Origin: Escherichia coli
Lineage (GTDB): Bacteria > Pseudomonadota > Gammaproteobacteria > Enterobacterales > Enterobacteriaceae
Direction: 5' to 3' (one strand)
Assembly (NCBI RefSeq): GCF_041886205.1
Contig: NZ_CP169029.1
DNA: 64,000 nt
Below are positions 18,001 to 30,000 of this stretch, one piece after another. Each line of letters opens with the position of its first letter. Position 1 is the first letter of the stretch. Made by a program: the position numbers.

Positions 18001-21000
18001 GCTCAACGTTGCGGAGCGCTTGCAGTAACGGCGAAAGGGGCAATGACAGCGCTGCCATGTCGACAAGAACTGGAATAGTGAGAAGTAAACGGCGAAGTCG
18101 CTCTTATCTCTAAATAGGACGTGAATTTTTTAACGACAGGCAGGTAATTATGGCACTGAATATTCCATTCAGAAATGCGTACTATCGTTTTGCATCCAGT
18201 TACTCATTTCTCTTTTTTATTTCCTGGTCGCTGTGGTGGTCGTTATACGCTATTTGGCTGAAAGGACATCTAGGGTTGACAGGGACGGAATTAGGTACAC
18301 TTTATTCGGTCAACCAGTTTACCAGCATTCTATTTATGATGTTCTACGGCATCGTTCAGGATAAACTCGGTCTGAAGAAACCGCTCATCTGGTGTATGAG
18401 TTTCATCCTGGTCTTGACCGGACCGTTTATGATTTACGTTTATGAACCGTTACTGCAAAGCAATTTTTCTGTAGGTCTAATTCTGGGGGCGCTCTTTTTT
18501 GGCCTGGGGTATCTGGCGGGATGCGGTTTGCTTGACAGCTTCACCGAAAAAATGGCGCGAAATTTTCATTTCGAATATGGAACAGCGCGCGCCTGGGGAT
18601 CTTTTGGCTATGCTATTGGCGCGTTCTTTGCCGGCATATTTTTTAGTATCAGTCCCCATATCAACTTCTGGTTGGTCTCGCTATTTGGCGCTGTATTTAT
18701 GATGATCAACATGTGTTTTAAAGATAAGGATCACCAGTGCGTAGCGGCGGATGCGGGAGGGGTAAAAAAAGAGGATTTTATCGCAGTTTTCAAGGATCGA
18801 AACTTCTGGGTTTTCGTCATATTTATTGTGGGGACGTGGTCTTTCTATAACATTTTTGATCAACAACTTTTTCCTGTCTTTTATGCAGGTTTATTCGAAT
18901 CACACGATGTAGGAACGCGCCTGTATGGTTATCTCAACTCATTCCAGGTGGTACTCGAAGCGCTATGCATGGCGATTATTCCTTTCTTTGTGAATCGGGT
19001 AGGGCCAAAAAATGCATTACTTATCGGTGTTGTGATTATGGCGTTGCGTATCCTTTCCTGCGCGCTGTTCGTTAACCCCTGGATTATTTCATTAGTGAAG
19101 CTGTTACATGCCATTGAGGTTCCACTTTGTGTCATATCCGTCTTCAAATACAGCGTGGCAAACTTTGATAAGCGCCTGTCGTCGACGATCTTTCTGATTG
19201 GTTTTCAAATTGCCAGTTCGCTTGGGATTGTGCTGCTTTCAACGCCGACTGGGATACTCTTTGACCACGCAGGCTACCAGACAGTTTTCTTCGCAATTTC
19301 GGGTATTGTCTGCCTGATGTTGCTATTTGGCATTTTCTTCCTGAGTAAAAAACGCGAGCAAATAGTTATGGAAACGCCTGTACCTTCAGCAATATAGACG
19401 TAAACTTTTCCGGTTGTTGTCGATATCTCCCTATCCCTCAACCGGAAAATAATAATACTAAAGTGCTTAGCCCTGCTAATAATCACCTAATCCAAACGCC
19501 TCATTCATGTTCTGGTACAGTCGCTCAAATGTACTTCAGATGCGCGGTTCGCTGATTTCCAGGACATTGTCGTCATTCAGCGACCTGTCCCGTGTATCAC
19601 GGTCCTGCGAATTCATCAAGGAATGCATTGCGGAGTGAAGTATCGAGTCACGCCATATTTCGCTATCAGGATTCTGTGTGATGGTTACATCGCCCGGCCC
19701 AGGGCTGTTTAGTCATCAGCGCTTTCTGACAGTGCTGAGATTTCAACCTGTTGCAGTAAAAATGAGTAGATATAAGGCAAGTGTGCTGCCAAACCCATCT
19801 TTTACGGGGTGAAGGTAGATTTCGTATGAAGGGTATTCGCTATTTCACTGAAGCCTGTTCCGTTCTTCCATAGTTCAAAAACAGAGGCTTTTTCCTCTGC
19901 TGTAAATGTTCGTCTCATTCAAAAAACCTCTGCAACCCCATGTTTTCACATAACTGTTGCGTTGACCAATTGAATCTACAACGGCTTTTTTTAATATGTC
20001 CCGTTCGTCGGTAACCCGCTTCAGCTCTTTCTGGAGACGGCGGATCTCGGCCTGAGCATCTGACTGTTCTTTATTAGTGGAAGAATCCGGACCGTACTTC
20101 TTTATCCAGGAGTAAAGGCTGTGGGTGGTGATATCGAGACGTGTTGCAACGCTGGCAACAGAATAACCGCGATCAACAACCTGTTTGACTGCTTCAATTT
20201 TAAACTCTTCGGGATAACGCTTACCGCTCATGGGCACCTCTCTTTAAGTCATCTTAAATGACTCTGAGGTGTCTATTAAACCTGTGGCGATTCATTCGTC
20301 TTGTTTATCAGGTTATTGATGATATGTTAATTATTGCGGTAGTCGCAGTAGGTAAACGTGAACGTAGCAACGTTTATCATCTCGCTAGTGAGCGGATGAA
20401 ATAATATCCCTGTCAGCACTCTTTTTTATCTGCTGCCGTTTTTTCCGGTGATTTTTTTCTGCATGCAGAAAAAAGCCTGCCCGGAGGGCAGGCATGAAAG
20501 ACAATCGCACAGTTAGTGTTGAAATTAATGATATCACGCATTATACCCGGTGGATACACAAACCATCCCATGTAAATGCACTGGCATCCTAATCTACGTC
20601 TGATAACAACTGCAATGGCTGGACCTGTGATTTAAGAGAAAGTTATTATGTTTATTGAATATAACCGAAGTGATAAATAAAAGTATTATCACCTGTAATA
20701 TTTATGCTTATTGCGTGGTTTTATCTGGTTATATAAAGCACAGATGTTCTCATTATTTTCTGAAAAATAACCATATGGATCGATTTCCCCCACCCAGCCG
20801 AAGCGGTTCGGCTCGTTCGGCGTGTCGTCGACACTGAAGCGCTTATCCACTTCGTTCCAGCGGTAAGAGTCGTCGCTGTCGCTGACGAATGCCATCGGGT
20901 CGCTAAACAGCGTGATCCGCCATGCGATCAAAAAGCGTAAGTGTTTCCGACAGACGAGCCGGTGAAAAAAGTGGTGTGTCTGGCAATACAGGCATCGTCC

Positions 21001-27000: not shown

Positions 27001-30000
27001 CCATCGACATAGTATTTTTTCAAAGCAAGAATTGCCTTCTCGCTATGTATTCCTGATAGCTTGATCAGGATATCAAAGTCTCTTTCAGATATATTCCCCT
27101 TTGTCATGTGTCACTCCATGAATCAAATTTCATAGTAATCAATCTTTCTTTGATCGACTTATAGATAATAAGATCAGAAATGATAAAAAAGTAACGCATA
27201 TTTCTTCTCGTCATGTCTACTTATAAAATTCAAATGAACTAACCTGAACTACTTACACTGGAATATCATTATATTGGAATAATTATAAAACTGAACAAAA
27301 TGGTCAATGTAATCTGGTTAATTTATAAATATTTACATTGCGTGATGATATTTAATTCCAGTGTTAAGTAATGTCACATGCCTATTATTGGTTACTACTT
27401 TGTAGGTGTTTTGGTTCGGCGTTAATATCATTGGTCATAATCACCTGTGAAAGTTTATTCTTGAAATGTTATAGGTATATTACTTGCAATTAAAAATGAG
27501 AAATTTATTATTATTGTGTTTTGCAAATATAATAATTAAAAATTTATTATAAATTATGATTAGAATTGACAATATAAAAGAATAATAAAACTCAATATGA
27601 AAATAATTATCATCTGGTTTGATACTTTTGCTGTTGATTACAGGAATAAAGTGTCAGAATAATATTGTTATTGGGTAAAAAAAGCCTCCACTATATGTGG
27701 AGGCAAACCCTTAGATAGTTCTATTGAGGCAAGTATGTTATAAATCTGCCTTATCTTTTATAGCATATAAAGATATGTATGCTATATTTTTTTGAAGAAA
27801 TTTTTCCAGAAATTACAGTAATACAAGAAATATTAACTGGTGTGATTTTTGGATGTTTAATAAGTACAGTGTACTTATATTTTTGTAATAAAGATGAACG
27901 CGTCCTTTAGATAAACTGAAAATATTAAGCATGTCTCATGTGGTTTTCTGAATCAAAACTCTTTTCAGTCTTTGATTTTTTGTTAAAAACAGGTTTATTA
28001 CAAGGGTGTTGTTGTGAAATGTGTTTTGGTGTCGTTGTGATTTTATGGTGATAATGTGAATTTTTATCCTTTCAAGATGGCTCCCTGGACGTTAAATACA
28101 GTGGAAATTTATATTAAGATATAAATATAACTATTGCGTTATTTAAATTATTGTCTATTACAGCTCCAGTTAATAGAGCCTGAAGTAATTTCTTAGTATT
28201 TCATCATAAGCGTTTATCTATCGTCTCTTTCTAAATTAACCGGTCGTATTACAAGGTGCTGAATCTGATTAAGGAATGATACTTAGGGGATTATGGCTGA
28301 CTTAATAATTAGATAACTGATAAATGACTATCAGGGGGATATCGTTAAGTCAGCCTTTAAAATCAAGCGATTATATAGCTGGTGACTCTTTTCGAAGAGC
28401 ATCAAGGTAGTCAGCGTACCATTGCATCATTTCTCGTCTTCCTTCAAGGTAACGAGCATGGTTGTATGTACCACGAATGCTGTTTTTGTCCGTATGTGCA
28501 AGTTGCATTTCAATCCATGCACTATTGAATCCTTGCTCGTGTAGAACAGTACTCATTGTATGACGAAATCCATGCCCGGTAGCTTTTTTGTCATAGCCAA
28601 TCTTCTTCAAAACCATATTGACGCTTGCATCGCTGATAGGCCTGTTAACATCATTTCTTCCGGCAAAGATGTATCTGTATCTTCCAGTCAGTTCTTTGAG
28701 GATTTGCAGAGACTGGATTGCCTGATCTGACAGAGGGACGATATGCTCCTTCCTCATTTTCATCCGGGTCGGAGGAACTTCCCATATCTTTTGGGTAAAA
28801 TCGATCTCACACCATTCCCCCATACGTAATTCTACTGTTCTCAGCCCTGTGAGCATCAACAATTTTGTAGCTTCACGGGTTACAATACTGCCGGTGTAGT
28901 TTTCGAGTTTGTATAAAAACTCTGGTAGTTCAGGAGGAAGCAGGAAAGGGTAATGTGTTCGCTTATAGCTTTTTATTGCTATAACCAGATCAGAAGCTGG
29001 ATTGTATCGTGCCCGACCTGTAACAATGGCATACCGAAACACTTCACCACATCGTTGGCGAACTTTATTAGCTAGCTCGCAGGCTCCTCGGCTTTCGATA
29101 CGCTGAAGAACTGCGAGAAGTTCAAGAGGTTCGATTTCACTAATGGGTCTGTTTCCAATGTAGGGAAACACATTATTTTTGAATGCTCTGTCGACATAAT
29201 CAGCGTAGCTGGCAGACCAGCCTGAAACTTTTGCGTTGTACCACTCGGTGGCGATTGCGGCAAAAGTTCTTCCTTCGGAAAGGTTTTTCTCAAGATTTTC
29301 AGCTTTCTTGACTTCACCGGGATCTTTACCATCGGCATGTATTTTCTTGGCTTCATCCCGACGTTTGCGAGCTTCAGCCAATGTAATAGTTGGATAGGTG
29401 CCAAATGATAGTTTCTTTTCCTTCCCCGCATAGTGGTACTTCATTCGCCAGTACTTTGAGCCGTTAGGATTGACCTGAAGGTAGAGCCCACCACCATCGG
29501 CAATCTTATAAATTTTATCTTTGGGTTTGGCTGTTTCAACTTGTCGAGCTGTCAGTGGCATCTGGGGGCCTCGCAATAGATTGACCAAGATGTGCCCCTA
29601 AATAGGCCCCCAAATGTGACTTGATTTACGTTCCCCTGAGGAGAATTAAGGCGACTATTTGAGTAACATAAGTAAGGGTATGTGCTGATTATAAAGGCTT
29701 TTTGTGGGGTATGGTAGATTTCAGGAGAGGTGTGCATGGTGTCCCCTGCAGGAATCGAACCTGCAATTAGCCCTTAGGAGGGGCTCGTTATATCCATTTA
29801 ACTAAGAGGACAATGCGGCATGAGTATACCCGCTAATGGACTGCGGGGTAAGTACACTGCCGCTCGATTGCTTAAACCCTCGCCATTTATGCTGGGTTTT
29901 TATCATTTTTCTTAATGTTTTCCGCACGTTCTGCTTTTTGGCGTGCTTCTGCTTTGCGCTTGTTGCTCATGTCGTTACGGATCTGTGCATGACTCATTAA

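Follow-up and report, generated by a model that had tools for sequence, protein, structure and literature searches.

A probable remnant of a P4-like integrative island with the adhesin gene aatA at the argW site of Escherichia coli

The DNA analysed here is a stretch of 64,000 nucleotides (64 kb, hereafter the window) of Escherichia coli contig NZ_CP169029.1 (assembly GCF_041886205.1), in which an integrase gene, insertion sequences (ISs) and the autotransporter gene aatA lie beside the tRNA gene argW. An original prediction, read from the sequence alone, had placed a decayed genomic island between cscB and argW, at 19398–29811. The features that it named (the tRNA, an integrase, an AT-rich stretch, an IS3, IS remnants, a frameshifted open reading frame (ORF) and an autotransporter) were all recovered. 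Both ARAGORN and Rfam gave a tRNA-Arg(CCT) at 29737–29811 on the minus strand as the sole tRNA of the window. It was assigned to argW because of the gene order in annotated relatives, which is evgAS-emrKY-dsdA-dsdX'-cscR-cscA-cscK-cscB, followed by variable DNA and then argW-yfdC-mlaA-yfdF-like-fadL.

The limits of the foreign DNA were set with a synthetic empty site composed of window positions 19000–19836, one C and positions 29737–30600 (cscB-X-C-argW-yfdC, X being the DNA that follows cscB). It was searched in 5426 complete E. coli genomes, the collection on which all genome counts are based. A single uninterrupted match of about 99% identity was present in 1413 genomes, for example E24377A. 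Since the empty site is contiguous in these genomes, 19398–19836 is the native argW 3' flank of csc-positive E. coli (flank X), and the foreign DNA is 19837–29736 (9.9 kb), together with a 19-bp att core inside argW. The left boundary had been set at the cscB stop codon (19398) and was wrong by 439 bp. Within flank X lies a DUF4942 pseudogene fragment at 19539–19628 on the minus strand, an annotation taken from strain wlxctx60. The island region had also been described as lower in GC, which holds against the right flank (42.1% versus 51.6%), but the left flank itself has just 44.2%.

Next to argW, an ORF of 396 codons at 28371–29561 (minus strand) encodes a P4-like, argW-specific tyrosine integrase, the start of which lies 175 bp from the tRNA 3' end. 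The Pfam domains Arm-DNA-bind_3 (PF13356), Phage_int_M (PF22022) and Phage_integrase (PF00589) were matched over essentially their full model lengths, so that the gene had rightly been called intact. The protein is 48% identical over 386 amino acids (aa) to IntS of the K-12 element CPS-53, and its motifs LRTVELR, HGFRH, LAH and GTYNH align with the same motifs of IntS. These motifs hold the catalytic R...HxxR...H...Y residues. The NCBIfam model PRK09692 gave 288.9 bits, below its cutoff of 434, and the integrase appears related to this family at the domain level alone. The leader of the integrase gene and the attL arm (29562–29736, minus strand) are conserved together with the integrase at 99.7–99.9% in relatives.

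The att core consists of the 3' 19 nucleotides of argW (29737–29755, argW on the minus strand) and reads TGGTGTCCCCTGCAGGAAT on the plus strand. The same 19-bp sequence was found as attR in two relatives, at 5793–5811 of locus L003 of wlxctx60 and at 25462–25480 of locus L002 of 13C1079T, where it adjoins a yeeU-type distal end of the island. The original prediction had proposed to locate attR through a partial repeat of the argW 3' end inside the island. No second argW 3' end was found anywhere in the window with a 25-mer (up to three mismatches), a 15-mer (up to two mismatches) or blastn-short using the tRNA and its flank. One match with two mismatches, at 43890, was rejected as chance, being on the wrong strand and inside a fimbrial usher gene. 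Searches by tblastn for an excisionase, with TorI and with the AlpA-like helix-turn-helix protein of CRE1540, gave a best E-value of 1.7; they cover these two types, and an unrelated recombination directionality factor is possible. With one att core, no attR and no TorI- or AlpA-like excisionase, the element would be unable to excise by site-specific recombination despite its intact integrase ORF. The picture of an island that is decayed and immobilised, yet keeps its integrase and autotransporter intact amid IS debris, is supported. A direct repeat of 25 nucleotides with 76% identity was also noted, with one copy in flank X (19799–19823) and the other in the attL arm (29698–29722), about 14 bp from the att position. 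As both copies lie in the same register beside this position, the repeat may not be due to chance but reflect a resemblance of the attB and attP flanks.

The same att core is occupied by CPS-53 in K-12, as had been stated. To call the island an alternative occupant is correct for K-12, but in wlxctx60 a CPS-53-type intS stump stands in tandem with the island, between flank X and the island attR. There, the 354 bp between X and attR comprise the first ~196 nucleotides of a CPS-53-type intS and its leader, 95.5% identical to K-12. In 13C1079T the att repeat directly follows flank X, with no intS piece between them. The order cscB-X-intS'-argW without an island also exists (hits H167–H169 of the empty-site search). 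The intS stump beside attR in wlxctx60, together with these island-free genomes, leads to the conclusion that the island of this lineage inserted next to a CPS-53 stump rather than replacing CPS-53. The stump is joined to flank X (wlxctx60 L003 5437–5811 and H167–H169) via the 16-bp TGTTGTCTCCTGCAAA, which, base by base, combines the att core with a similar intS-internal sequence. Recombination of attR with this pseudo-core inside intS is the probable cause of the loss of the CPS-53 prophage.

Beyond the integrase stop codon, positions 26986–28370 have a GC content of 28.9%. The predicted 1.4-kb AT-rich, ORF-poor stretch is therefore present, but it starts with a papB/focB-like stump cut by IS3. 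This stump (26986–27107, minus strand) is the 5' part, about 40 codons, of a PapB/FocB-family regulator gene interrupted by an IS3-like element; its ORF (26952–27107) runs into the IS3 end and its name was taken from the Prokaryotic Genome Annotation Pipeline (PGAP) annotation of relatives. The other 1.26 kb (27108–28370) form an AT-rich spacer with no annotated gene and no ORF of more than 43 aa. This spacer occurs in 237 genomes, never apart from this integrase, and in none of them is it annotated. Rfam, in both gathering and E-value modes, gave nothing significant beyond the tRNA, the spacer included, and a distant DNA search with the spacer gave no diverged gene-bearing homologue. A strong terminator-like hairpin is located at 27684–27704 on the minus strand (GCCTCCACATATAGTGGAGGC followed by a run of seven T). 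Beside it, two small ORFs overlap on opposite strands, one of 43 aa with a hydrophobic stretch (27779–27910, plus strand) and one of 39 aa (27813–27932, minus strand), neither with a family match. The spacer appears to be AT-rich regulatory or decayed DNA, and nothing indicates more; that the conserved spacer and its hairpin encode an unannotated small RNA or small protein is a weaker possibility.

The IS3 at 25728–26985 (plus strand) is 1258 bp long, with orfA and orfB open and terminal inverted repeats at its ends (TGATCTTACCC... and ...GGGTAGGATCA). In wlxctx60 an identical element carries the annotation IS3 with programmed frameshift. The element had been called intact, which is true of its length and its ORFs, but it is a recombinant of two IS3 types and has no target-site duplication. 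The flanking 3-mers are CAG and ATT, whereas the canonical IS3 in CRE1540 does have a 3-bp duplication (CTT/CTT). The window copy was compared at 255 informative sites with IS3A of K-12, the canonical copy of CRE1540 and a divergent copy, about 82% identical, that lies at the papB junction in CRE1540 and 2015C-4944. It is canonical at all 237 sites up to approximately position 1090 and of the divergent type at 17 of the last 18 sites (positions 1098–1240), with a single switch near 1098. The last 160 nucleotides (positions 1098–1258) stem from the 82%-identical IS3-like element, which is found at the papB junction in CRE1540 and in 2015C-4944, a strain of E. coli that makes Shiga toxin (STEC), and in truncated form in AR_0061. 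The same hybrid with its flanks is present in wlxctx60 (100%) and 6EVA (99.6%). The simplest reading of this pattern would be homologous recombination between an IS3 and an IS3-like copy, with loss of the DNA between them. In CRE1540 an ISEc31-like element seemed to abut the aatA block at the same base as the IS3; this candidate was dropped, as alignment to M37H puts the two junctions 104 bp apart.

On the other side of the hybrid IS3 lies a conserved block of about 5.9 kb that comprises an IS2-like stump, aatA, gene debris, an orfA stump and IS30. It is conserved at 98.4–99.9% across selC islands (BL21, M37H), the argW island and ColV/ColBM-type plasmids. Upstream of aatA, an IS2-like (IS3 family) orfB remnant with an internal stop (25041–25421, minus strand) was identified by tblastx and the annotation of relatives; 25095–25421 matches the K-12 IS2 element in its 3' part at 64% aa identity. 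Downstream, the segment 20297–21090 contains gene debris, recognised from the annotation of relatives and a terminator scan: a RelE toxin stump (20297–20404), a terminator-like hairpin (20475–20493) and a PhoX-like fragment with a frameshifted ORF (20773–21090). For a 139-aa ORF, Pfam gave only a weak PhoX fragment match, and no NCBIfam matches were obtained for this ORF, the papB stump or the small ORFs of the spacer. An IS3-family orfA remnant follows at 19986–20231 (minus strand), cut by the IS30 insertion; it matches N-terminal positions 1–85 only of NCBIfam transpos_IS3 and is annotated in relatives as "transposase, missing C-terminus". All IS pieces that had been listed were thus present, and one had been missed, a 144-bp fragment of the IS30 5' end at 19837–19980 (minus strand). 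It consists of the terminal inverted repeat and the first 89 nucleotides of the transposase ORF, which translate as MRRTFTAEEK... on the minus strand from 19918, and was recognised by alignment to wlxctx60 and from IS30 annotated in relatives. In BL21 the IS2-like stump lies upstream of aatA, and downstream of it come the frameshifted ORF, the PhoX-like fragment, the stumps of RelE and orfA, and IS30. With the same neighbours there, the IS2-like remnant, the orfA remnant and the frameshifted ORF, which had been listed separately, all belong to one aatA block. In both M37H and BL21 the block is located in a selC island, accompanied by the same zinc-ribbon genes, S16 and IS911 stumps and IS30, and this shared selC/argW stretch suggests exchange between related islands.

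The autotransporter gene, an uninterrupted ORF of 3498 bp at 21265–24762 (minus strand), encodes the full-length protein of 1165 aa that had been predicted, and the DNA upstream of the gene is retained as well. Judged by its sequence it is AatA, the published adhesin of avian pathogenic E. coli (APEC) (Li et al. 2010; Dai et al. 2010). It is 98.4% identical at the nucleotide level and 97.8% at the aa level (1139 of 1165) to the single copy in BL21(DE3). The published aatA ORF is 3498 bp with a protein of ~124 kDa, homologues exist in BL21(DE3) and REL606, and the BL21(DE3) copy is 99% identical to aatA of IMT5155 (Dai et al. 2010, PMC2944236). The identification rests on the comparison with BL21(DE3), and the link to IMT5155 runs via the figure given by Dai et al. 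The cargo is therefore full-length as stated but not anonymous, being AatA in a conserved IS-flanked block that also occurs in selC islands and on plasmids. Pfam placed an Autotransporter domain (PF03797) at residues 884–1143 (E = 7.8e-35), with AC_1, Pertactin, two PATR and VID matches, and TIGR01414 scored above its cutoff. Sequence matches in the PDB were the AIDA-I barrel 4MEE (E = 4e-74) and the IcsA passenger/autochaperone structures 5KE1 and 3ML3. The protein thus has the predicted layout of a classical AIDA-I-type (type Va) autotransporter, with a beta-helical passenger, an autochaperone and a 12-strand barrel. By eye, the N-terminus (MNKKMRISLFLASVLYSVQSHFSGA/QT) shows a hydrophobic core after a charged start, as well as a small-x-small site, and is a candidate Sec signal peptide. 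Of the 26 aa differences from BL21 AatA, 24 lie within the first 125 residues, and the DNA differences from the BL21 copy cluster at 24250–24762 and 20250–20750. This clustering in two stretches indicates that aatA here is probably a mosaic allele with a divergent 5' patch. Full-length aatA was found, chromosomal or plasmid-borne, in 664 genomes, and 221 plasmids of PLSDB carry it. In this strain the protein would presumably act as an adhesin; the BL21 copy is weakly transcribed and its protein was undetected there (PMC2944236).

Alignment to wlxctx60 accounts for the distal end of the island. Window positions 17000–19836 correspond to L003 2603–5439 and positions 19830–31000 to L003 11040–22211, so that the window is without 5.6 kb of wlxctx60 (L003 5440–11039). 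Elsewhere the two are 100% identical over 1–9557 and 10615–14580, and differ at 4 of 29,328 bases downstream. The lost segment contains the intS stump, attR, yeeU, DUF987, JAB and antirestriction genes, zinc-ribbon genes, the S16 and IS911 stumps, and IS30 except for the 144 bp described above. At the junction, ...GAAGGGTAT is joined directly to TCGCTATTTC..., and the sole homology is AGGGTAT at the end of X versus AGGATAT in the IS30 interior, a microhomology of 3–7 bp at 19830–19836. This junction between X and IS30 was found in none of the complete genomes, from which the deletion appears recent and strain-specific. Exchange at a secondary att site was considered as its origin and rejected, as the core agrees with the IS30 sequence that was kept at just 3 of 15 positions. 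The left end of the deletion falls within 1 bp of where the att core, or the intS pseudo-core, meets flank X. It is also rather unlikely that this position marks an abortive excision, in which the intact integrase would have nicked or cut the DNA at the core and the break would have been joined illegitimately into IS30. If true, such an event would have removed attR and locked aatA in the chromosome, and integrase-initiated imprecise excision would be a route to island domestication.

The island from which these pieces derive is larger in other strains. The unit of integrase, spacer and papB stump (26968–29736) occurs in 239 genomes at a coverage of at least 80%, always on the chromosome. In CRE1540 the same unit with the IS3-like copy heads an island of more than 45 kb, which also holds an inverted aatA block, an Ag43-family gene, genes for a TerB-N protein, an ATPase and a DEAD helicase, an HsdR-N gene and several ISs. 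In STEC strain 2015C-4944 the island stands in tandem with a lambdoid prophage. Relatives of the island carry Ag43, YeeP-like GTPase, DUF932, antirestriction, JAB (YeeS), DUF987 (YeeT) and YeeU genes. A physical link of integrase and autotransporter in relatives was confirmed in the seven genomes common to the match lists of the aatA block and of the integrase and spacer (CRE1540, D7, 23CRST010, VE-T10, 2017.04.02CC, AMSCJX04 and wlxctx60), where they lie ~20–24 kb apart in one island.

The original prediction had named as refuting evidence that the same gene order be already annotated and common. The island DNA is 99.9–100% identical to RefSeq genomes with routine annotation, and the integrase module is common, but the exact reduced order is rare: the reduced layout was found in 6 genomes (at least 80% coverage), none of which has the final 5.6-kb deletion.

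Further observations were made on this island in relatives. In AR_0061 (L014) the same argW island was reduced independently, and a truncated IS3-like copy is fused there to ISEc31-like DNA; in CUWW06 (L013) it was likewise reduced, with losses bounded by IS1B pairs in a dsdCXA background. As both genomes were retrieved for having the integrase together with aatA, the fact that each keeps aatA is no evidence of selection. Genes for a protein with a TerB N-terminal domain, an ATPase and a DEAD/DEAH helicase, together with a gene with an HsdR-N domain, are present in CRE1540 (L006 30706–36530) and 13C1079T (L002 1–4207) and are all lost in the window; they look like an anti-phage defence cassette.

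Taken as a whole, 19837–29736 is very probably a 9.9-kb remnant of a P4/CP4-like integrative island, reduced by the hybrid-IS3 deletion and the 5.6-kb deletion and fixed in the chromosome. The island would have entered the argW 3' end via integrase-mediated recombination at the 19-bp core. A canonical IS3 beside the aatA block would then have recombined homologously with the older, ~82%-identical IS3-like copy at the papB stump, and deletion of the DNA between the two copies would have left one hybrid IS3 without target duplication. Very recently, a microhomology deletion of 5.6 kb would have removed the distal end (the yee-type genes, attR, the intS stump and most of IS30) and joined X to the IS30 interior. 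What survives is the proximal end, with the attL core, the intact integrase, the AT-rich spacer and the papB-like stump, and the conserved IS-flanked block carrying aatA. The anatomy, the homologies and the junctions are observed in the DNA; the order of these events, the activity of the integrase and the function of AatA in this strain are inferred.

Four points weigh against this reconstruction. The intermediate that this model predicts, in which a canonical IS3 at 25727/25728 is still followed on the right by undeleted island DNA, was found in none of the genomes examined. An identical picture would result if the 3' end of the IS3 had undergone gene conversion and the deletion had been a separate event. 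The junction of the 5.6-kb deletion is unique among the genomes searched and rests on one sequence, and its left endpoint lies within 1 bp of the att boundary, which the microhomology model takes as chance.

Among the other explanations, it is unlikely that aatA and its block arrived near argW as an independent IS-mobilised module, close to the integrase by accident and without the two ever having been part of one element. The high conservation of the 5.9-kb block across selC islands, the argW island and ColV/ColBM-type plasmids would fit such a module, as would the variable aatA flanks noted by Dai et al. (PMC2944236). However, the block is found inside the island, with the integrase on one side and the distal backbone or attR on the other, in CRE1540, 13C1079T, wlxctx60, CUWW06 and AR_0061. 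The stretch shared by selC and argW islands runs past the IS-bounded block into backbone genes (the zinc-ribbon genes and the stumps of S16 and IS911), which speaks for an exchange among related islands and not for transposition into argW DNA, and the block is bounded by no target duplication or paired IS ends.

Very unlikely is the view closest to the original prediction, a self-contained 10.4-kb island from cscB to argW (19398–29811) that is an alternative to CPS-53, with the autotransporter as its own cargo. The integrase does abut argW, the autotransporter lies between it and cscB, and K-12 has CPS-53 at this place. Yet 19398–19836 is native flank at the empty sites of 1413 genomes, the remnant stems from an island of more than 45 kb, the CPS-53 intS stump stands in tandem in the nearest relative wlxctx60, and selC islands and plasmids carry the aatA block as well. 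That the hybrid IS3, the X-IS30 join or both are assembly artefacts from collapsed repeats is highly improbable: both junctions do involve multicopy IS elements and the X-IS30 junction has no match among the complete genomes, but the identical hybrid with its flanks was found in the independently finished wlxctx60 and 6EVA, and the X-IS30 join shares only 3–7 bp and has unique DNA on one side, unlike a repeat collapse.

The favoured reading, a reduced P4/CP4-like island, can be compared with known elements. CPS-53 (KplE1) of K-12 likewise uses an att core at the argW 3' end, with an integrase that aligns with that of the window over its full length. It is a prophage remnant with gtr-type and tail genes that keeps both attR, a 15-bp pseudo-argW repeat (pawZ), and the excisionase TorI, whereas the window contains neither attR nor a TorI-like excisionase and its cargo is unrelated. 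CP4-type (P4-integrase) islands, of which CP4-44 with flu/Ag43 and yeeR-yeeW is an example in E. coli, also combine a P4-like integrase beside a tRNA gene with an autotransporter adhesin as cargo. They differ from the argW island in their target tRNA, and the window has lost the whole yee-type distal module and attR. Published aatA loci share with the window the ORF length, the IS2-like stump upstream, IS30 and debris downstream, and the domain layout; their flank variants are fecI, ykgN and eitD (PMC2944236), whereas aatA here sits in an argW island.

The argW-dsdCXA/csc hotspot, to which this chromosomal site belongs, is described as variable (Jahreis 2002; Moritz and Welch 2006, as cited in PMC11251922 and PMC7545054), and csc genes replace dsdC and the 5' part of dsdX beside argW. 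In the window a dsdX 3' stump remains at 14051–14269 (minus strand), between dsdA and cscR. The csc sucrose genes took the place of dsdC and most of dsdX, a known trade-off at this hotspot between the use of sucrose and of D-serine. The portions of text available on this hotspot contain no mention of aatA at argW. In a literature search for argW and aatA together the matches concerned the unrelated aatA of enteroaggregative E. coli, and no paper in the collection searched was found to place the adhesin gene aatA at argW. This absence is a small descriptive gap, not a discovery.

Some observations were made elsewhere in the window. The gene emrK, for a multidrug efflux adaptor, is split at 9558–10614 by an IS5-family element 1057 bp long, which has a 9-bp target duplication and is presumably IS903/IS102-like by its size and duplication length. 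The insertion is considered recent because it is absent from the otherwise 100%-identical wlxctx60. A yfc-type fimbrial usher ORF at 41763–43940 aligns only from profile position 158 of 881, its N-terminal part missing, and the usher is annotated in wlxctx60 as a pseudogene with an internal stop. Between mlaA and fadL, at the position of yfdF in K-12, lies a low-GC (33–36%) ORF of 420 aa (32047–33309, minus strand), which is longer than K-12 yfdF and matched no NCBIfam family.

All components of the island are of known kinds, and its exact reduced order is a trivial derivative of a known element; it raises no new question for specialists. The large ORF receives a name, aatA, which is that of a published adhesin and virulence-associated gene of APEC. 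The true boundaries of the island are set, and the element would be unable to move on its own. The locus serves as a worked example of how a large tRNA-linked island may be whittled down by IS recombination and small illegitimate deletions until the integrase and one cargo gene survive.

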